Below, piece by piece: positions 15,961-24,805 of a stretch of DNA of 40,000 bases. A program made the position numbers and the translations under genes. Within the stretch, counting starts at the first letter, position 1; every line of letters starts with the position of its first letter. The notes below the pieces were generated by a model. The model made no database searches and was not told the DNA's origin. It worked only from the letters and a program-made list of their open reading frames with translations. The DNA is taken from NCBI GenBank assembly GCA_965250085.1, contig OZ252287.1, positions 638,934 through 678,933 of the forward strand, written 5' to 3'. This DNA is from Candidatus Altimarinota bacterium. GTDB lineage: Bacteria > Patescibacteriota > Gracilibacteria > CAIRYL01.

Positions 15961-18189
15961 TTATATCATCGGTTCTTCAAATTCCACTTCCTGAAATTTT
16001 TCATTTGCTGGAGACGCTTTTTCTGTGCTTGCATCCACCTCTTCCCATGCAGAAATAACATTTTCTACTTGCTCCTTGGGAAGGCAGTAGTTTTCACGTG
16101 AAAACTGGCGGGCGGCTTCGGCAGAGTTATTTTTGTTATCATAAAATATATCAAGTGTACGGGCAGAAAACGCCTGTGTGGTTTCTCCATTGATCGAAAT
16201 CTTGCAGCAAAAGTCTCTCATCGCAAGATTAATAATATCCTTGGGGGTAAAAATTGGAGAATATTCTTCAGCAAGAATATCGGCGTCTTCCGCTCCGACA
16301 CGAAAGGAGATAATGGATCCGATATTTCCAAAGACAGTGGTACGAATACGCTCTGAGAGTTGTCCCATAAATTGATGAGCGAGAGTAATATTGAGACGGT
16401 ATTTTCGGGCTTCAGAGAGGATTTCATCAAAGGTGTCAGTCGCAAAGTTGTGAAACTCATCCACATAAAAATAGAAATCCTGACGTTCTTCTTCTGGCGT
16501 ATCCGCCCGTGCCATAGCCGCCTGATAAATCTTAGTGACTGCCATCGCTCCCATAAGTCCCGCATTCTCTTCTCCGAGGATTCCTTTTGACACCTTCATC
16601 AGAAGGATCTTTCCCTCATCCATGATCTGGCGAAAATCAATTTTATTTTCTGGCTGACCAACAATATTTCGAATCATATTGGTAGCAACAAATTGCCCCA
16701 TTTTATTGAGCAGTGGCGTGATGGCCTCAGCATCAAACTTTTCACTCCAGGCGGCGAATTCATTCACCCAGAAGTTCTTTACAAAATCTTCTTCAATCCC
16801 ACGAATAATATACTGACGATAATTCTTGTCCGTTAGCATCTTCATGATCGAGAGTACTGTAGTGTTGGGCGAATCCAGAAGCGCGAGGATAGTGTACCTC
16901 AGAACATGTTCGAGCTTGGCATTCCAGTTCGTACCAAAAAGTTTTTTAAAGATTTCTATAAACCCTATGGTAACGCGCATTTTGAGCTCTGGGGGAACTT
17001 TTTCTAGCGGATTAAATCCAATAGGAAAGTCCATATCGGCCGGATCAAACAGTACGACATCTTTAATTCGATTTTCCGGAATCATCTTGAGTACATTGTC
17101 TACGAGATCTCCATGGGGATCGAGAACACCCACTCCCCTCCCATTGATAAGATCGTTACGAATGAGGAGTTCTAGTAGTTTTGACTTTCCTGATCCTGAT
17201 TTTCCTACGGTATATACGTGTCTGCGCCTATCAGCACGAAAAATTCCAAATGGAACTCGGGAATTATGAAAATTTGTTTCTCCAAAAAATGAAATGTCAG
17301 GATTGTTTTGATCAATCGGAAGCGTAGATGGTGGATCTGATTTTTTACTGAGCACATAGACAATATTGGGTACTTCTCGATCGTTGGGAAGATGATACAT
17401 AGTGGCAAGTTCTTCAAGTGAGTATTTGTGCCTTCGTCCCATTTTACGAGCTTTCATTGCTGCAAAAAATCCAGCTCCCTTTTTTGCGCCATTTTGCTTG
17501 ATGCGATTGAGATCAAGAGTATTAAATTGTGAAAAAGCTCGTACAATAGAATTGAGACGTGCCTTTTGTTGCTGCTGAGTCGTGCCAAAAACACATACTC
17601 TCACCGATCCATCAAACATTCGATGGGTATTTTTCTTTTTAATCGCTTCTTTTATGAACTTTCGTACTCCTCCTTTTTTAAACCAGAATTTGACTCGAAA
17701 AATATGACGAATGCCTTCCATCCACTTGCGAATACCTCTGAAAAAATGAAATCCTCCAGAGTCAAACTGGGGCTTGATGATGTATTGAACAAGTACGCTC
17801 TCGTGAACCGGGGTTTTGGAAAGGGTAGAAAGGAGAGCGGCAAGTGAGTCGCCTTCAAACTCCTCATAGGTTTTGAGCGGCAGCACATCTGTTTTTTGGA
17901 GTCCAAGTTCCGTGCCAAGAAATGTATTTTGTCCCTTGGAAAGATAGGAAAGGAAATCGGGTATTTCCAAAATATCTGCCTCTGGATAGAGTGAATAGAG
18001 CTGTCCACGAATAAGATCTCCGAGTTGGTCATCAGCACTAAATCCGAAGGAAATATGCTGTTGATGCGCAAACATTTCAAAACTTACTTGGCGGCTACCA
18101 AGACTCTCATGCAGAAGCTCAAGAAGCTGTTTGAATGTTTCTTCCTTTTTCTGATTGTTCGGCGGAATCTTGACCAGAAACGTCTTCAT
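15961..18189 (-). CDS. Soluble VirD4/TraG/TraD-like (type IV coupling protein-like) P-loop ATPase with an uncharacterised ~300 aa N-terminal domain
   Basis: Walker A VGKSGSGKSKLL, Walker B FYFYVDEFHNFAT, and a C-terminal LAHQFMGQLSERIRTTVFGNIGSIISFRVGAEDA block typical of the TraG/VirD4 C-terminus. No N-terminal TM helices are visible. Confidence 0.8.
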   Translation of the reverse strand: MKTFLVKIPPNNQKKEETFKQLLELLHESLGSRQVSFEMFAHQQHISFGFSADDQLGDLIRGQLYSLYPEADILEIPDFLSYLSKGQNTFLGTELGLQKTDVLPLKTYEEFEGDSLAALLSTLSKTPVHESVLVQYIIKPQFDSGGFHFFRGIRKWMEGIRHIFRVKFWFKKGGVRKFIKEAIKKKNTHRMFDGSVRVCVFGTTQQQQKARLNSIVRAFSQFNTLDLNRIKQNGAKKGAGFFAAMKARKMGRRHKYSLEELATMYHLPNDREVPNIVYVLSKKSDPPSTLPIDQNNPDISFFGETNFHNSRVPFGIFRADRRRHVYTVGKSGSGKSKLLELLIRNDLINGRGVGVLDPHGDLVDNVLKMIPENRIKDVVLFDPADMDFPIGFNPLEKVPPELKMRVTIGFIEIFKKLFGTNWNAKLEHVLRYTILALLDSPNTTVLSIMKMLTDKNYRQYIIRGIEEDFVKNFWVNEFAAWSEKFDAEAITPLLNKMGQFVATNMIRNIVGQPENKIDFRQIMDEGKILLMKVSKGILGEENAGLMGAMAVTKIYQAAMARADTPEEERQDFYFYVDEFHNFATDTFDEILSEARKYRLNITLAHQFMGQLSERIRTTVFGNIGSIISFRVGAEDADILAEEYSPIFTPKDIINLAMRDFCCKISINGETTQAFSARTLDIFYDNKNNSAEAARQFSRENYCLPKEQVENVISAWEEVDASTEKASPANEKFQEVEFEEPMI

Positions 18190-18250: not shown

Positions 18251-18312
18251 CTCCCTTAACAAGGGAGATTAGGTGGGTTTTAAACCCCTTTGAGTCCCCC
18301 TTTCCAAGGGGG
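18251..18312. repeat. Triple-hairpin intergenic repeat, copy A (immediately 3' of Cys-rich paralog 1)
   Basis: Hairpin 1: CTCCCTT-AAC-AAGGGAG (18251..18267). Hairpin 2: GGGTT-TTA-AACCC (18275..18287). Hairpin 3: CCCCCTT-TCC-AAGGGGG (18296..18312). It shares the linear core CTCCCTTnAnAAGGGAGnnTnGGTGGnTTTnAA with copy B at 23972..24026, in the same orientation. Confidence 0.7.
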
Positions 18313-18315
18313 AAG

Positions 18316-19974
18316 CTAATACACTTCTGTCAAATAGCACTCTTCACAATACACGATTTCTGGGCGATCTGGATCATAACTGGTTTGGATTTCTTTCTTG
18401 CATTTTGCGCAATTGCGATCCCAGAGTTTCCGGGGATTACGCATATTGCTTCGCTTTTTGTGACGCACCAAAAAATGCTCATGAGGAATGGGGAAATGCA
18501 TTCGTCTATATAAATCAAGCTCTGCTCTTTGAATCTTAAAGAGTTCTCCAGAGGCGTGGCAGGCTATCGCCCAGTTGAGAATATCATCTGGGATTGTATC
18601 AATTGTGTCCGGAAGTTTGGATGCAGGAATTTTTTTACTCACATCAGAAAAATCTGCTTCTTCATCATCTTTCCATTTATATCCTTTTGCGAACGCTTCA
18701 TCTTTAGACAGAGGATAGTAGTCTTGGGCCATAGTCTGGTTATAACCAAATGAAGAGATATGTATGGGAAAAAACTCTCCATATTCCCCTGTTTCAATCA
18801 TATGCTTTTTGATTCGCGGGATGAGATCTTCATATTCTTCTTTGGTGTATTGTTTGTTCAAAATGCAGTACTGCTTGTGCCGAAGCCCCATACAGCCAAA
18901 AATGTGTGAGGAATGAGGAGAGTACATACAGTATTCTGCATCACTGCACTGTCCCAGTGAATGTGCACAAAACTTCATATTATGTGATCCGTATCCACAT
19001 ACAGTGCACTCATACAGTAATTCTCCTTCACCACATTCATGAATATCCATACAGTTTTTTAGTGGCATGAATCCCTGATAGATATATTTTGAATCCCAGA
19101 GATTTGAACTATCGAAGCAATGCTCTGCATTTTTACAGTGATCGAGGTATTCACCAAAGACGTTTTCATTGTGCACGCCATGTAAATATTTTTGTGGAAA
19201 TTTAATCTGAAATTTTTGAAATTCTTCACGAGTTTTTTGAACCTCTTTCCAAGATCTGAGTTTTTGTGCATATGATTCGTATGCTTCCTTTGTCGCTTCT
19301 TTATTGTGGATGTAATACCGTTTATTACGCAGGTTCACAGAAAAGATACAATTCTTGCAGCCAATACAATTTTTAAGAAAATAGCTATCTGAACAACCTT
19401 CTGAGTCTTGGAGAAAAGACGAATTATAGCAATTATAGCTATCGACACATTCGTAGCACAGTTCGCATTTACGAGCTCTGTAACAATCCATGCAGTTTTT
19501 ACATCCGTTTATACTGTACCCATACAGACAATCCCAGTTTTCATCAGAGTCAAAAATGAAATAACAATTTTTATTTTTCCCAGCATGATTGGTATATGGT
19601 GAGTTCTCATCAAATTGGTATCCAGTAAAAAGATTAGGGCGAGGCACTCTCTCAAAAAGATCTTTGAATTGGTCAAAGAACGGCTTACTAAAGTCATATT
19701 CTCTTCCATATTCCAATGGATCCCATTTATCGCTATACCAAACTTCTTGACCATAAACCCTATATGGACTTGACGAAGGGAAATTGGAAATAACATTTTT
19801 CCCTGTGAGGTCACACTTGCGCTTATAAAGAAAGAGTTGGTTTGGTTGTGCCAATCTACGTTGTTGGCGACAATCAATGCAGTGTGTTGGATTTGGAACA
19901 TCTATTTTTTTATAAAACTCCTGGTCTTCAGGAAAAATATGGAATTCTGCCGAACAATTTATACAAGTTTTCAT
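18316..19974 (-). CDS. Cys-rich zinc-ribbon protein, paralog 1 (uncharacterised family)
   Basis: 552 aa with 34 Cys by my count, and no signal peptide or TM. N-terminal CxxC...CxxC ribbon (CINC...CIDC) and C-terminal ribbon (CAKC...CEEC). Two internal Cys-rich modules. Clearly homologous along its full length to the ORFs at 19993..21591 and 22277..23947. Confidence 0.85.
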   Translation of the reverse strand: MKTCINCSAEFHIFPEDQEFYKKIDVPNPTHCIDCRQQRRLAQPNQLFLYKRKCDLTGKNVISNFPSSSPYRVYGQEVWYSDKWDPLEYGREYDFSKPFFDQFKDLFERVPRPNLFTGYQFDENSPYTNHAGKNKNCYFIFDSDENWDCLYGYSINGCKNCMDCYRARKCELCYECVDSYNCYNSSFLQDSEGCSDSYFLKNCIGCKNCIFSVNLRNKRYYIHNKEATKEAYESYAQKLRSWKEVQKTREEFQKFQIKFPQKYLHGVHNENVFGEYLDHCKNAEHCFDSSNLWDSKYIYQGFMPLKNCMDIHECGEGELLYECTVCGYGSHNMKFCAHSLGQCSDAEYCMYSPHSSHIFGCMGLRHKQYCILNKQYTKEEYEDLIPRIKKHMIETGEYGEFFPIHISSFGYNQTMAQDYYPLSKDEAFAKGYKWKDDEEADFSDVSKKIPASKLPDTIDTIPDDILNWAIACHASGELFKIQRAELDLYRRMHFPIPHEHFLVRHKKRSNMRNPRKLWDRNCAKCKKEIQTSYDPDRPEIVYCEECYLTEVY

Positions 19975-19992: not shown

Positions 19993-21591
19993 TTAGAACG
20001 CTTTTGACACATAGCACTTTTTACAATAAACCGCTTCTGGTCGATCTTTTGCATATGTTGTGCGAATGATTTTTCTACAATTCCTGCATTCTCTGTCATG
20101 GAGTTTTCTGGGATTCCTTTGATCAAATCTCATTTTATGTCGAACTTCTGGATGTAGATTGGGGATTGGCAAGTTCATGGTTTGATAGAATTCTAATTCT
20201 TTCTTCTGCAAGAGAAATGGCTTTTTAGATTTTTCACAAATGATCACTGCATTTGAAGGTTTTTCTGAAATATCCTGTATTGTATTTTCCTTCCACTTCC
20301 AACCTTTCATAATAACCTCGTCCTTCTTCATAGGCAAATATTCATATGAAACTGTTTCATTATATGAGAAGGGAGAAGTATGAATCGGGAAAAATTCACC
20401 CCATTCTCTTGCCTGAGTCATGTGTTTTATTATTTGCGAAACCAATTCTTCATACTTTTTTTTCGTGTATTGTGTATTGAAAATACAATATTTCTTATTT
20501 TTTAGTCCTACGCATCCAAATAAATATGAACTATTGTAACAATATTGGCAATATGATGAATTCTGCAAATAACGCCCAAAATAGCAGCATTTACAATTAT
20601 GGAACCCCGTTGTGCCATTAAGTTCATAGCAAAGCTCTGCTCCACTCCCACTGTAGGAGCAACGATGCATATCCTTGGCTCCATCTCCACAAGTATCGCA
20701 ATGCTGACTGTTTTGCATGTCTAAACAATCATAGCACTCATATAAATCCTTGCACTGATCTATATAATCTCCAGTTACATTCTCGTTTTTAACCCCATGC
20801 ATATATTTATGAGGGATTCGAAGAGCGATCGCATCACGTTTGTTTTTCCATTCTTTAATTTTTGAGAGAGTGAGCTTAAGAGTTTGCATTTTTTGCTCAT
20901 ACTCTTTTTTTGAGAATTGTTTATTTTCGAATACATATTTCTGATTTCTAAGTCCTGCTGAACAAAAACAGTTCTTACATCCAGTACAGTTTTTTAAGAA
21001 ATAGCTATTGGCACACCCATTACAATCTTGAGAAAAAAACAAACTGTATCCTTGAAAGCAATCTATACACTCATAACAGAGCTCGCACTGAATGCATTTG
21101 GTTACATCTACACATGATTTGCACCATGCTGCCGTATGGCTGTAATAAACATCTTCTGAATAAAAGCAGAGAGCTAAATAGCAGGATGTATTATTCCCTC
21201 CATAATTCACATACTCACAATTTTCTGAAGTTCCATCTTGCATAAGGGCTACATGGGGAATAGATTTTTGAAATTCAGAAAATTGATCAAAAAATGATCT
21301 ACTAAAATCAAATTTTCTGCCGTAATTCATAGGATCCCACTTGTCACTCCACCAGCACTCAGAGCAATAAGGCATATATTGTGAATTTATGTCGAAAACA
21401 GAAATCATTGATTTTTTGCACAAATTACATTGATGTTTATAGAGATTGCGTTCGTTGCGAAATGCATTGCGCCTTTGTCGGGAACAATCGGGGCAACGCG
21501 TTGGTTCTGGCACCTCTATTTTTGTATAAAACTCCTGATCTTCAGGAAGTATTTGAAATACTGCCGAGCAATTTACGCAGGTTTTTTGCAT
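19993..21591 (-). CDS. Cys-rich zinc-ribbon protein, paralog 2 (uncharacterised family)
   Basis: 532 aa with 43 Cys by my count. Same architecture as paralogs 1 and 3. Lacks the KLPDTIDxIPDDILNWAI block shared by the other two. Confidence 0.85.
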   Translation of the reverse strand: MQKTCVNCSAVFQILPEDQEFYTKIEVPEPTRCPDCSRQRRNAFRNERNLYKHQCNLCKKSMISVFDINSQYMPYCSECWWSDKWDPMNYGRKFDFSRSFFDQFSEFQKSIPHVALMQDGTSENCEYVNYGGNNTSCYLALCFYSEDVYYSHTAAWCKSCVDVTKCIQCELCYECIDCFQGYSLFFSQDCNGCANSYFLKNCTGCKNCFCSAGLRNQKYVFENKQFSKKEYEQKMQTLKLTLSKIKEWKNKRDAIALRIPHKYMHGVKNENVTGDYIDQCKDLYECYDCLDMQNSQHCDTCGDGAKDMHRCSYSGSGAELCYELNGTTGFHNCKCCYFGRYLQNSSYCQYCYNSSYLFGCVGLKNKKYCIFNTQYTKKKYEELVSQIIKHMTQAREWGEFFPIHTSPFSYNETVSYEYLPMKKDEVIMKGWKWKENTIQDISEKPSNAVIICEKSKKPFLLQKKELEFYQTMNLPIPNLHPEVRHKMRFDQRNPRKLHDRECRNCRKIIRTTYAKDRPEAVYCKKCYVSKAF

Positions 21592-21595
21592 TGAA

Positions 21596-22273
21596 TCATA
21601 GTGACTTTTTCACCTTGTAGCTCAAGTACATAAATGGTGTGTCTAAAAGCACCATACAAATTTTAAATATATAAGCAGCAATCATCATTTGCCATAAATT
21701 TTCATGTATTCCATAAAAAGCAATGGGATAGAAAATCAAAACATCAATCAACTGAGTTGTCAGGGTGCTGCCACAATTCCGAAGCCAGAGCTTCTTTCCT
21801 CGTGTCATTGTTTTTATTTTATGAAACCACCAGATATCAAAGTGTTGCTCTACAGCAAACATAATAAGAGCGGCTATGACAATGCGAGAGGAAACTTCTA
21901 GAAGTGATTTTATATATGGCTGAATAAAGTCTCCTGCGACAGGAGTGAAGAAAACGATCATTTGCTGAAGAAGTCCAATGATTACTATGATAGCAATAAT
22001 TAGCCAAACGAGTTCTTGCGCTGCTTTTTTCCCCCAATGTTCGGCAATGACATCGGTAGAAAAAAATAAAGTTGCATAGATAAGTTCCCCAAAAAGAAAA
22101 ACAAATCCAAAAATTTTGATGGTGAAGGGGGCGAGAAATAATGCCAGAACTGCCAAGGCACTTAGATATCCGAAAAATATAGCCTTTCCAAAACGAAATG
22201 CCATCAAGGCGAGTGATAACAAAGTAATTATTATGGTGACTATAAGCAATAGGTCCATGTTTTTAGTGTACAT
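21596..22273 (-). CDS. yhhQ: Queuosine-precursor (preQ0/preQ1) transporter, YhhQ/VUT (DUF165) family
   Basis: Polytopic membrane protein with family blocks ATLFFSTDVIAEHWGKKAA and EQHFDIWWFHKIK...KLWLRNCGSTLTTQLIDVLIF. Its start lies 3 nt after the paralog 3 stop, and its stop lies 4 nt before the paralog 2 start. Confidence 0.85.
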   Translation of the reverse strand: MYTKNMDLLLIVTIIITLLSLALMAFRFGKAIFFGYLSALAVLALFLAPFTIKIFGFVFLFGELIYATLFFSTDVIAEHWGKKAAQELVWLIIAIIVIIGLLQQMIVFFTPVAGDFIQPYIKSLLEVSSRIVIAALIMFAVEQHFDIWWFHKIKTMTRGKKLWLRNCGSTLTTQLIDVLIFYPIAFYGIHENLWQMMIAAYIFKICMVLLDTPFMYLSYKVKKSL

Positions 22274-22276
22274 TTC

Positions 22277-23947
22277 TTAAAAAACCTCTGCCATATAACA
22301 TTTCTCACAATACATTTTTTCTGGTCTCTCTGGTGCATAGGTTGTTTGGATTTCCTTATTGCATTTGTTGCACTTGCGTTTCCAAAGCTTGCGAGGATTA
22401 CGAAGAGCCTGCCGATGGACATGTCGTATGTCTGGATGAAAATGGGGAATAGGAAATTTTTGTTTTCGATAAAACTCGAGTTCTGATTTCTGAATTCGAA
22501 AAAGTTTTCTGGATTCCTCACATTCTATAGCCCAGTTCAAAATATCATCAGGAATTTTGTCAATGGTGTCAGGGAGTTTTGCTGCGGGGATCTTTTTGGT
22601 GACATCCGAGAAATCTGGCTCTGGTTCGTCATACCACTTCCAACCTTTTTGAAGAACTTCTTCCTTTGTGAGAGGAAAATATTCTTGAGCAACAGTTTCA
22701 TTGTATCCAAATGCAGAGAGTTCTGGTGGAAAAAATTCTCCCCACTCCTCCATTTGCAGCATGTGATTTTTTATTTGAGAAAAAATATTTTTGTATTCGT
22801 CTTCTGAGTATTGCTTGTTGAGAATACAGTGATGCTTCTGCCTGAGGGAGACACAACCCAGAAGGTCATGTACGTTTTGCCAGGAAAAGATAGAATGATA
22901 GACATCTACTGCCTGAAACGCCACATAATACGATCCAACTACGTTTTTCAGACCTACTCCGACACCAGCACTATTATAACAAAGCTCAGTACTGTCTCCC
23001 CAAATATTGAGGTCATAGCAGTCATTTACTTTTTTATACATATTGGTGCAAAACTTTGAATCTCGTATGTCTCCCGCAGAATCATATATTTCAAAAGAGT
23101 TTTGACATCCATTCAGATTGTCACCGCTTGTATTCTGATTCATTGCCCCACGAAATGCCCTCTTCACTTGCCGAGCACAAAATACTTCGAATTCTTTTTT
23201 GAAATCTTGAATCTTTGAATAATGGTGCAAATCAAATTCTCCTGCTTTCTTTGTATATTCCTCTGGAGAGTAAGGGATATTAAAAATATGATGCTGTTTT
23301 TGATGAAGATTGACACATCCAATACAATTCTTACATCCAATGCAATCGACAAGAAATGCAGATTCCGTGCAGGTCTTGCAAAAACGGCTAAACTTGAGGT
23401 CAAAGCAATTAATACAATTGATACACTCGTAGCAAAGCTCATTATCCCAAAGAAATAAAAAGTCCATACAATTTTTTATTTTTGCAAAAGTTTCTCCATA
23501 CATACAGTCTTCTGCTTGTTCTCCGTCAAATACTAAGTGGCAGTTTTTGAGACGATACGCATCGTGAACATAATCACTGTTAATACAATCCCCCAGAATA
23601 ATAAGTCCTATTTTGGGAACTTCATCCCAAAGTTCTTTAAACTGGCTAAAAAAAGGGCGATTAAAATCAAAATTCCGACCATACTCCATGGGATCCCATT
23701 TGTCTCCCCACCAACACTCAGAGCAATACACAGTATACGGTTTATCTGAGGAGTAGATGGTTACCATTTGTTTTTTACAAAAATCGCACGCTCTCTTGTG
23801 CAAATTTCTCTCATTTCGAAAAGCAAGCCGACGTTGCTGACGACAGTCGGGACAGAGTCTTGGCTCGAGAACATCTATTTTTGAGTAAAATGCCCGATCT
23901 TGATCTGTGATCTCAAAATCTGTGCCGCACTGCTGACATGATTTCAC
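22277..23947 (-). CDS. Cys-rich zinc-ribbon protein, paralog 3 (uncharacterised family)
   Basis: 556 aa with 34 Cys by my count. GTG start at 23947 (GTG AAA TCA TGT CAG CAG TGC = (M)KSCQQC). Same terminal ribbons as the paralogs, but the second internal module is Cys-depleted. Confidence 0.85.
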   Translation of the reverse strand: MKSCQQCGTDFEITDQDRAFYSKIDVLEPRLCPDCRQQRRLAFRNERNLHKRACDFCKKQMVTIYSSDKPYTVYCSECWWGDKWDPMEYGRNFDFNRPFFSQFKELWDEVPKIGLIILGDCINSDYVHDAYRLKNCHLVFDGEQAEDCMYGETFAKIKNCMDFLFLWDNELCYECINCINCFDLKFSRFCKTCTESAFLVDCIGCKNCIGCVNLHQKQHHIFNIPYSPEEYTKKAGEFDLHHYSKIQDFKKEFEVFCARQVKRAFRGAMNQNTSGDNLNGCQNSFEIYDSAGDIRDSKFCTNMYKKVNDCYDLNIWGDSTELCYNSAGVGVGLKNVVGSYYVAFQAVDVYHSIFSWQNVHDLLGCVSLRQKHHCILNKQYSEDEYKNIFSQIKNHMLQMEEWGEFFPPELSAFGYNETVAQEYFPLTKEEVLQKGWKWYDEPEPDFSDVTKKIPAAKLPDTIDKIPDDILNWAIECEESRKLFRIQKSELEFYRKQKFPIPHFHPDIRHVHRQALRNPRKLWKRKCNKCNKEIQTTYAPERPEKMYCEKCYMAEVF

Positions 23948-23971: not shown

Positions 23972-24026
23972 CTCCCTTGAAAAGGGAGGCTGGGTGGATT
24001 TAAATAAATCCCCTTTTTCAAAGGGG
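23972..24026. repeat. Triple-hairpin intergenic repeat, copy B (between the K+ channel stop and the paralog 3 start)
   Basis: Hairpin 1: CTCCCTT-GAA-AAGGGAG (23972..23988). Hairpin 2: GGATTT-AAAT-AAATCC (23996..24011). Hairpin 3: CCCCTTT-TTC-AAAGGGG (24010..24026). On the minus strand, hairpin 1 is followed by CAG and then T7 (plus-strand A7 at 23962..23968). Confidence 0.7.
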
Positions 24027-24040
24027 AGGGGGAATAAAGA

Positions 24041-24805
24041 CTAGAAAAGTCTTTTTTGAACAAATGCCATAAAAGCTCCCAACATGAGATATCCATTAAA
24101 TACTTCTATATCAGCAATAATTTTTGCAGGAATAGTTGCCGGAAATACGTCTCCAAATCCAAGTGTAGTAAAAGTAGCAATGGAAAAATGGAGTGCATCA
24201 TACCAATGGATTCCGGTTATAGCATTGGAATGTGTAAGACCTCCTGCAATCAAAAAGAGTGCTGCATAAAGAGTAACCGCAAAGAGACATGACATTCCCC
24301 ATCGAAAAAAACTGAGACTATAGAGAGAGCTTAATTCCCAAATTCTATACGCCAGGAATCTCCCCCACTTTGATTCAAATTTATAAAACCTCTTTCGGTA
24401 TTCCATTTTTTGCAAATGTACTTTTTTGTAAGCGTCCCTGAATTCTTTTCTTCGATAACTTGTTTCAAGTGTCGTGAAGTGTCTCTCCATAATTTGATAA
24501 AATGCTTGTGCTTGATGTTTGAGGATTGGATCTTTTGAATTTGATTTCCACTGATCAAGATATTGCTGTTCTTGTTTCTCAAAGTACTCCAGCATCATGT
24601 CATACAAATGCTTTTCCGATCGGGTTTCATACAGCACATGTCTCTGCAGGGAAATTCTGAGAAGGTAATAGTAGTAGGTCCCTCGCGTTTCAAAATCATC
24701 TTTATCGAGCTGCTCAAATTTGTCTTCAAAAACACTTCTTGCTTCTTCCAAATGAGCAGAAAGCTCTTGATTTTCAATAGCCGAAACTGCTTCGTGAATT
24801 TTCAA
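24041..24805 (-). CDS. Two-TM potassium-channel-family protein with a ~150 aa cytoplasmic N-terminal domain
   Basis: C-terminal pore module HWYDALHFSIATFTTLGFGDVFP (selectivity-filter-like TLGFGD) flanked by two TM helices. The N-terminal helical, charged domain is of unknown function. Confidence 0.8.
   Translation of the reverse strand: MKIHEAVSAIENQELSAHLEEARSVFEDKFEQLDKDDFETRGTYYYYLLRISLQRHVLYETRSEKHLYDMMLEYFEKQEQQYLDQWKSNSKDPILKHQAQAFYQIMERHFTTLETSYRRKEFRDAYKKVHLQKMEYRKRFYKFESKWGRFLAYRIWELSSLYSLSFFRWGMSCLFAVTLYAALFLIAGGLTHSNAITGIHWYDALHFSIATFTTLGFGDVFPATIPAKIIADIEVFNGYLMLGAFMAFVQKRLF

Follow-up and report, generated by a model that had tools for sequence, protein, structure and literature searches.

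The locus described here raises two questions, namely what kind of protein is encoded by a gene whose product contains 43 cysteines among 532 amino acids (8%), and with which partner such a protein works. The gene, an open reading frame (ORF) at 19993..21591 on the minus strand, lies within a stretch of 40,000 nucleotides (the window) of contig OZ252287.1 (positions 638,934 to 678,933) from a Candidatus Altimarinota bacterium, between two paralogs; we refer to it as paralog 2 and to its neighbours as paralogs 1 and 3. A large part of bacterial diversity belongs to the Patescibacteria, whose lineage-specific proteins are mostly without an assigned function. In this work, our analyses show that the ORF product belongs to a large uncharacterised family of Patescibacteria and is a non-enzymatic scaffold protein of the cytoplasm, the cytoplasmic location following from the lack of a signal peptide and the presence of zinc fingers. 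The explanation that we favour overall, a zinc-capped double solenoid that is the partner of an orphan VirD4-like ATPase, has in our judgement about an even chance of being correct.

The protein follows the order module-core-core-module, with all segments encoded on the minus strand. An N-terminal double zinc module (residues 1-84; 21340..21591) is followed by a conserved aromatic linker (residues 85-111; 21259..21339), in which W85 and Q103 are invariant and which leads into a helix before the first solenoid. Core module 1 (residues 112-240; 20872..21258) is predicted to be a cysteine-ladder beta-solenoid of 12-15-residue coils that ends in a GLRNxxY...EYE closing signature and a helix. A variable helix (residues 241-257; 20821..20871), with the highest column entropy in the protein, separates it from core module 2 (residues 258-392; 20416..20820), a homologous solenoid in which cysteines are fewer and less conserved; conservation within the protein is highest at its closing signature and the helix after it. 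A conserved acidic, aromatic-rich segment comes next (residues 393-446; 20254..20415); it contains the EWGEFFP...YNET...KW block with G398, N411 and W433 invariant, has a net charge of about -7 and is absent from core-only relatives. The protein closes with a C-terminal zinc module (residues 447-532; 19996..20253; net charge about +7) that is homologous to the N-terminal one. Altogether, the termini are basic (+3 N, +7 C) and the two solenoids acidic (-5 and -6). AlphaFold2, run on the family alignment, modelled the core as a short-strand solenoid with a predicted local distance difference test (pLDDT) score of 88.4 and a predicted template modelling (pTM) score of 0.89.

An earlier note on this DNA, made from the sequence alone, had described two copies of one module capping an internally duplicated core. 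The motifs quoted there and their coordinates are correct: the N-terminal string corresponds to residues 12-80 and the C-terminal one to residues 459-527, the core signatures are present at 213-232 (GLRNQKY...) and 362-381 (GLKNKKY...), and the corresponding signature strings were also found in paralogs 1 and 3. Profile comparisons with hhalign, using slices of a 103-sequence family alignment, confirmed both duplications. The N module (1-84) and the C module (447-532) aligned over 79 columns with a probability of 99.8% (E 6.8e-30), and core 1 (112-240) and core 2 (258-392) over 125 columns with a probability of 99.9% (E 8.6e-34). Local alignments tested against 500 composition-preserving shuffles in all three paralogs gave z = 7.6-21 for the pair of terminal modules and z = 8-16 for the pair of core modules, which indicates that the internal similarity is not a by-product of the cysteine-rich composition. 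Furthermore, the hidden Markov model (HMM) of each module picked up the sister copy in 10/10 paralogs of the genome and no other ORF of that genome. In the structural models, both terminal modules share one order of elements, that is, two strands, two helices, two strands and one helix (N module: strands 2-4 and 11-13, helices 16-24 and 34-42, strands 51-54 and 61-64, helix 77-80; C module modelled alone: strands 2-5 and 12-15, helices 17-25 and 35-45, strands 52-55 and 62-65, helix 78-85). In a phylogenetic tree the N modules and the C modules separated completely into two clades (support 99/98 and 100/97, respectively), which places the duplication of the terminal module before the divergence of the sampled family. 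The analyses show both duplications, that of the terminal module and that of the core, to be ancient.

Each terminal module comprises two potential Cys4 sites, site 1 being CxxC...CPxC followed by a basic helix and site 2 being CxxC-x17-CxxC. In the N module, site 1 consists of C5, C8, C33 and C36 (a treble clef of the zf_Tbcl type) and site 2 of C55 and C58, x17, C76 and C79. The model places C5/C8 between strands 2-4 and 11-13 and C33/C36 at the start of helix 34-42, as expected for a treble clef. In the C module of paralog 2, site 2 is intact (C502 and C505, x17, C523 and C526; zf_Tbcl_2 / TIGR04272 type) and site 1 is degenerate (C452, S455, H480 and V483). The view that the same module is found at both ends therefore stands as far as homology is concerned, but not in the sense of a complete double zinc module at the C-terminus, where the first ligand set reads C-S-H-V. 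Paralog 2 has three intact Cys4 sets and paralog 1 only two (N site 1 and C site 2). A helix-strand stretch of 21 residues (34-54 in the N module) carries a net charge of +5 in each terminal module.

In the alignment of 341 family members, the site-1 N-terminal tetrad was intact in 286 and the C-terminal CxxC-x17-CxxC tetrad in 324. Ligand sets were lost all-or-none, positions 58, 76 and 79 together and positions 455 and 483 together (phi 0.99-1.0). The commonest state, with N site 1 and C site 2 alone, i.e. the outermost sites, accounted for 136/341 sequences, and all four sites were intact in 49/341. Separately, a further paralog in the same genome (836030-837673) was seen to have lost the near-invariant C-terminal Cys4 site, which reads C-T-S-A there, the protein ending in ...VYSEEAY....

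The assignment of the termini to named domains was direct in some paralogs and indirect in others. Paralog 1 scored 25.7 bits against zf_Tbcl (PF13451), above the gathering threshold of 24 bits, and paralog 3 scored 21.6 bits, below it; paralog 2 had no match at E <= 1 to zf_Tbcl, zf_Tbcl_2 or TIGR04272. Since many relatives 40-53% identical to it carry a precomputed zf_Tbcl match, the membership of paralog 2 is given by homology to these relatives and not by a direct score. The curated cut-offs of zf_Tbcl_2 (PF23477, 27 bits) and TIGR04272 (36 bits) were not reached by paralog 1 (22.9 and 18.2 bits) or by paralog 3 (17.2 bits). Besides, a profile of the C module matched the second LIM finger (E 1.7e-4) and GATA fingers (E 0.03) in the PDB, and these matches identify the C module as a treble-clef finger. 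Contrary to the earlier opinion that no named domain could be recognised, the termini belong to Pfam zf_Tbcl and zf_Tbcl_2 and NCBIfam TIGR04272; for the core, which is unnamed, that opinion holds. Judging from the sequences, the analyses show real zinc sites to be confined to the termini, with three predicted Cys4 sets in paralog 2 and two in paralog 1.

The cysteines of the core behave in another way. All columns with at least 20% cysteine fall on a period-3 lattice (e.g. 157/160/163/166, 169/172/175/178/181 and 202/205/208/211), in which cysteine conservation ranges from 21 to 95% and the alternative residues are Ser, Val, Leu, Ala, Thr and Gly. The profile autocorrelation of core 1 gave values of -0.15 to +0.31 at multiples of 3 versus -1.34 at other lags, with the best lags at 12 and then 15; lag 18 was not raised, and the period-3 signal was not seen in control regions in the same autocorrelation. 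In the model, DSSP assigned one strand and then two single bridges with the same period as the lattice. Column entropy was lowest at the lattice positions (1.65, most conserved), intermediate at the preceding Asp/Asn/Gly corner (2.15) and highest at the following outward position (2.70, most variable). The repeat-solenoid fold that had been suggested for the core is borne out by the AlphaFold2 model and by this periodicity. As modelled, the analyses show a core that would be a narrow solenoid with coils of 12-15 residues, in which each three-residue side is predicted to comprise one inward residue (Cys, Ser, Leu or Val), one variable outward residue and one corner residue (Asp, Asn or Gly).

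Lattice cysteines are present nearly independently of one another, the mean phi between columns being 0.015; phi rises to at most 0.46, for columns 12 or 3 residues apart, which are spatial neighbours. A protein may have anything from 0 to 29 of them; in paralog 3, only 6 lattice cysteines are left in core 2, which is a more degenerate copy of the solenoid, and yet the module borders and the fold signature are preserved. Because these cysteines are freely exchanged with Ser, Val and Leu and vary independently, the substitution pattern shows them to be, in all probability, small interior residues forming a ladder, and not discrete metal sites or staples. The metal-stapled core proposed in the earlier note does not agree with a lattice of this kind.

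No match to the core was found by sequence in Pfam, NCBIfam or the PDB, and searches of the PDB with the single protein or with the family profile returned LIM-finger matches to the last 30 residues only. By structure, Foldseek found nothing significant for the full model in the PDB, where the best matches were left-handed beta-helices (E >= 0.013, template modelling score, TM, <= 0.25), or among viral models; nor did it find anything significant for the C-module model in the PDB (E >= 1). The termini consist of known domains; the solenoid of the core is of a new kind.

We also determined how far the family extends. A scan with the double core of 1.84 billion representatives returned 2,280 clusters, counted at 50% identity, at E <= 1e-3 and 351 at E <= 1e-30. 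The family was present in 16 of 301 sampled Patescibacteria genomes, the identical 16 being recovered with the full protein or with a core-only relative as query. It is lineage-restricted and multi-copy where present: named relatives belong to Peregrinibacteria, Peribacteria, Gracilibacteria and other Patescibacteria, copy number reaches at least 10 in genomes of ~1 Mb, and the paralogs of an array are 36-46% identical. A single full-length member, 37% identical, was seen in a Bdellovibrionota metagenome-assembled genome (L037:10001-11644, on a 3.26-Mb contig) without an ATPase or TrmB neighbour; this copy may reflect horizontal transfer. In the literature we found no paper on the family and none that mentions zf_Tbcl, PF13451 or DUF8128. 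The cysteine-rich proteins reported in a paper on Peribacteria genomes were considered and set aside, as they are different proteins, large and secreted.

Shorter forms of the protein exist, with the order module-core-core (~425 aa), core-core-module (~480 aa) or core-core alone (~300 aa), and in some loci the parts are encoded by separate genes. Locus L083 has, in order, a T4CP (type IV coupling protein) ATPase, a zinc module (95 aa), a double core (312 aa), a second zinc module (110 aa) and a second double core (294 aa); L084 has a zinc module (97 aa), a double core (300 aa) and a convergent T4CP ATPase; and L082 has a T4CP ATPase followed by two double cores. These split genes indicate that zinc module and double core are autonomous units that belong together. 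The stand-alone zinc modules keep all eight cysteines, are matched equally by the HMMs of both terminal modules (about 1e-26) and, in the tree, fall between the two module clades; a word-indexed search for stand-alone terminal modules gave no candidates, and such modules surfaced via gene context. The module-core-core-module order may have arisen by fusion of three adjacent genes in a tandem series of module and double core. The nested symmetry that had been noted as unusual is thus correct in its order, and its oddity has a simple reading in the tandem gene pairs of zinc module and double core seen in other lineages.

With regard to the partner, we surveyed the gene context at 81 loci from other genomes, taking neighbours within 10 kb. 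Family arrays contain up to 10 genes and are confined to a single strand in 96% of cases, with a median intergenic gap of 39 nt, and only two gene clusters recur in their neighbourhood. One encodes a TrmB-family winged-helix protein of ~253 aa, present in 35 of the 81 loci, of which 41 of 52 copies adjoin a family gene and 28 of 52 do so head-to-head. The other encodes a soluble T4CP-like ATPase, with 24 genes in 23 loci; 17 of these genes adjoin a family gene, and in 14 cases the family gene is immediately upstream and co-directional, mostly at a distance of 16-132 nt. An array usually runs from a divergent TrmB-like regulator to a soluble VirD4-like ATPase. The window represents the ATPase end of this pattern, three paralogs being followed by the gene for a soluble VirD4/TraG-like P-loop ATPase of 742 aa (15961..18189, minus strand), co-directional and 126 nt downstream of the array. 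The host genome, a single contig of 1.37 Mb that is 97% complete, encodes 10 paralogs of the family, and two of its four TrmB-like genes adjoin other paralogs. In three of the surveyed loci (L011, L017 and L078) we also observed genes for ORF6N-domain (KilA-N-like DNA-binding) proteins of ~180-200 aa, set antisense between members of the family, where a TrmB-like gene is found in other loci.

The ATPase belongs to a group that is widespread in this phylum. A 2025 survey counted 5,713 T4CP homologues in Patescibacteria, of which only 148 were near virB4, and raised exaptation as a possibility (PMC12102498); thousands of Patescibacteria VirD4-like ATPases are unlinked to any secretion system, and their role was left open there (PMC12102498). 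In our data, the N-terminal domain of the window ATPase (residues 1-310, ~300 aa) was found in 292 of the 301 Patescibacteria genomes, usually in 2-5 copies; the precomputed Pfam matches of relatives label it DUF8128, a near-universal and unexplained feature of the phylum. Close orthologues of this domain (E <= 1e-46) were found among the 301 genomes only in those that bear the family, whereas in genomes of the same class without the family the best match reached merely E 1e-6 to 5e-15. VirB4 (PF03135) was not found in the 97%-complete single-contig genome, and genes for a relaxase, a channel, a nuclease, a toxin or another effector are not among the recurrent ones of the cassette. None of the ATPases of this genome contains a zinc module, which is confined to the 10 paralogs. 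Two further T4CP-like ATPase genes were noted in the genome away from family genes (1343651-1345717 and 1259776-1261731); their products are 33-34% identical to the array-linked ATPase of L078, which is itself 52% identical to the window copy.

Taken together, these results allow us to propose how the system might operate. Gene context suggests that the zinc module and the double core would be autonomous units working together, that the whole protein would be a client or an adaptor of the soluble VirD4-like ATPase whose gene closes the array, and that the divergent TrmB-like regulator would usually control each array. The basic zinc modules may act as docking or nucleic-acid-binding handles, and the diversified outer faces of the solenoids may provide paralog-specific recognition. 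As far as can be told, a cassette of this family with an orphan ATPase is undescribed in print.

Several points weigh against this proposal. First, the confidence of the AlphaFold2 model is lower in residues 120-180 (pLDDT just 60-68), and handedness, coil geometry and the inward orientation of the lattice rest on periodicity and DSSP only. In addition, the independent substitution of core cysteines is compatible with weak or adventitious metal binding, or with disulfides. Second, a T4CP-like gene was not seen within 10 kb in 58 of the 81 loci, many of them on short contigs, and in the host genome 7 of the 10 paralogs do not adjoin a T4CP-like gene. Third, gene adjacency cannot separate a client from an adaptor, a regulator or an unrelated co-regulated gene. 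Finally, no conserved membrane component accompanying the cassette was found among the recurrent neighbours, which leaves export unsupported.

A bolder version of the proposal would be that the zinc-capped solenoids are the missing clients of the orphan VirD4-like ATPases, and that the soluble motor recognises the zinc modules and hands over, unfolds or delivers a repertoire of rods, possibly towards a host, as an undescribed episymbiont-specific ATPase-client system; we put this forward tentatively, as a possibility that we do not expect to hold but that deserves mention. The closest precedent for the favoured partnership with the ATPase would be the T4CP systems (VirD4, TrwB, DotL), with which it shares a VirD4/TraG-family P-loop ATPase as partner and the presence of the ATPase in one predicted transcription unit with diversified proteins, an arrangement common for coupling proteins and their substrates. 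In contrast to those systems, the ATPase described here has no membrane anchor, no VirB4 was found in the genome, and no relaxase or channel gene recurs; moreover, the putative clients are folded zinc proteins and not proteins with unstructured C-terminal signals.

Among the other explanations, the one that survives best, although we regard it as unlikely, is that of a conflict or defence module, in which the arrays would supply diversified sensors or decoys, the ATPase would serve a system directed against phages or hosts as its effector or motor, and the diversity of the paralogs would mirror an arms race. The large tandem arrays of 36-46% identical paralogs in genomes of ~1 Mb, the patchy, lineage-restricted spread in 16 of 301 genomes and the ORF6N and TrmB-like DNA-binding genes interleaved with the arrays all speak for such a module. 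The ATPase also matches the PADLOC models mad8 and HerA weakly, but these matches are limited to the generic P-loop core and no PADLOC model matches the family itself. Furthermore, the cassette has no recurrent effector domain such as a nuclease or a toxin, and the outward positions of the solenoid are variable, not hypervariable.

Next comes stand-alone nucleic-acid binding, which we consider rather improbable. The basic zinc modules would bind DNA or RNA, the acidic rod would be a spacer or a nucleic-acid mimic, and the proteins, without involvement of the ATPase, would be regulators or chromatin-like factors. This explanation leaves the conserved synteny with the ATPase unaccounted for, and core-only relatives that have no zinc module still adjoin the ATPase. 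The contrast in charge between the basic termini, with their +5 helix-strand stretches, and the acidic rods argues in its favour, as do the relationship of the treble-clef fingers to the GATA and eS27 types and the label 'Zn ribbon nucleic-acid-binding protein' that some sources give to members. However, most members can do without two of the four zinc sites, and the best sequence match in the PDB is the LIM finger, a protein-binding module.

A metal-stapled or metal-storing core, in which zinc, iron-sulfur clusters or other metals would be bound by the CxxC lattice and thereby stored, buffered or used in redox chemistry, has in our opinion a slim chance of being correct, and the substitution pattern of the aligned sequences leaves it disfavoured. 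With 8% cysteine, CxxC pairs stacked every 12 residues could in principle form inter-coil Cys4 sites, and the modest positive correlation between cysteines at spacings 12 and 3 could be read in the same way. Against this, the core cysteines are replaced by Ser, Val, Leu, Ala or Gly and not by His or Asp, they are lost singly, down to the 6 retained in core 2 of paralog 3 and to none at all in some proteins, and no match to a ferredoxin or metallothionein family was found. Least probable are structural rods or filaments, a beta-helix cytoskeleton of the bactofilin type whose assembly would be remodelled by the ATPase, since the rod-like double solenoid with conserved end caps and the high copy number that might suggest it are countered by zinc modules that would block head-to-tail stacking at either end, by many diverged paralogs that are unexpected for a polymer subunit, and by the lack of likeness to bactofilin or to any other solved beta-helix in the Foldseek search.

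The favoured explanation, a zinc-capped double solenoid working with the ATPase, can also be set beside proteins already described. As in zf_Tbcl, zf_Tbcl_2 and TIGR04272, the first half of the module is a CxxC...CPxC treble clef and the second half a CxxC-x17-CxxC motif with the exact spacing, and stand-alone proteins of 95-110 aa consisting of just the double module exist. However, those models cover ~40 residues each and have no assigned function, whereas in this family two fingers and a basic helix make up one unit of ~85 aa that occurs twice, flanking a core of 360 aa that no model covers. The CxxC-x17-CxxC half aligns with the second LIM finger (CRP1, 1B8T; CRP2, 1CXX / 1IBI) and with GATA fingers, which are of the same treble-clef class; in contrast to LIM proteins, only 30 residues align, the family has no LIM first finger and its context is the bacterial cytoplasm.

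As for the core, the beetle antifreeze protein TmAFP (PDB 1EZG) is a very thin beta-helix with a 12-residue coil and an interior cysteine ladder, secreted, with its cysteines in disulfides. The best lag of 12 and the cysteine columns on a lattice would make the core of this family analogous to it. Unlike TmAFP, the family has no signal peptide, its proteins starting at the zinc knuckle, and its cysteines are freely exchanged with Ser, Val and Leu; no match was found by sequence, or by fold among the 50 best listed, and the resemblance is one of analogy and not of homology. Left-handed beta-helix proteins (LpxD, GlmU, gamma-carbonic anhydrase) gave the best Foldseek matches to the full model, and the core is likewise solenoid-like. 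In contrast to them, the family has no Hexapep Pfam match, its repeat is of 12-15 and not 18 residues, and it has no catalytic His or other enzyme residues.

Three points are particular to this analysis, namely the contrast in covariation between the terminal ligand sets and the core ladder, the phyletic match between the family and one branch of the ATPases, and the split gene pairs, which would account for the order of the modules. Besides the TrmB-like regulator, the family is the one gene class that reliably shares a cassette with a branch of the orphan ATPases; it gives them a candidate partner and brings the question of their role within reach of a direct binding assay. With three residues to a side, a cysteine ladder in which Ser, Val and Leu are tolerated and no relative of solved structure, a cytoplasmic solenoid of this kind would represent a new repeat type, of interest for structure determination and design.

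The remaining features of the locus can be described briefly. Paralog 1 (18316..19974, minus strand; 552 aa) lies 18 nt downstream of paralog 2 and is 45% identical to it, and paralog 3 (22277..23947, minus strand; 556 aa) has a GTG start and is 42% identical to paralog 2. Inside the array, between paralogs 2 and 3, a gene for the queuosine-precursor transporter YhhQ / Vut_1 is found on the minus strand (21596..22273). This transporter was considered as a partner and rejected, as it recurs in 1 of the 81 loci and the link is incidental; YhhQ, the K+ channel-like gene described below, thyA and dnaB were each found in 0-1 of the 81. Hairpin repeats with G/C runs (18251-18312 and 23972-24026) stand on either side of the operon. 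They were examined as possible cassette borders and discarded in that role, since a blastn-short search found their arms at no fewer than 15 other sites of the genome, which places them in a dispersed family of short hairpins that look like repetitive extragenic palindromic (REP) elements or terminators. Beyond them, a gene at 24041-24805 encodes a K+ channel-like protein of 254 aa with a C-terminal pore of two transmembrane segments (Ion_trans_2, residues 182-253); its long soluble N-terminal part has no match, and the gene occupies the place that the TrmB-like regulator holds in relatives.

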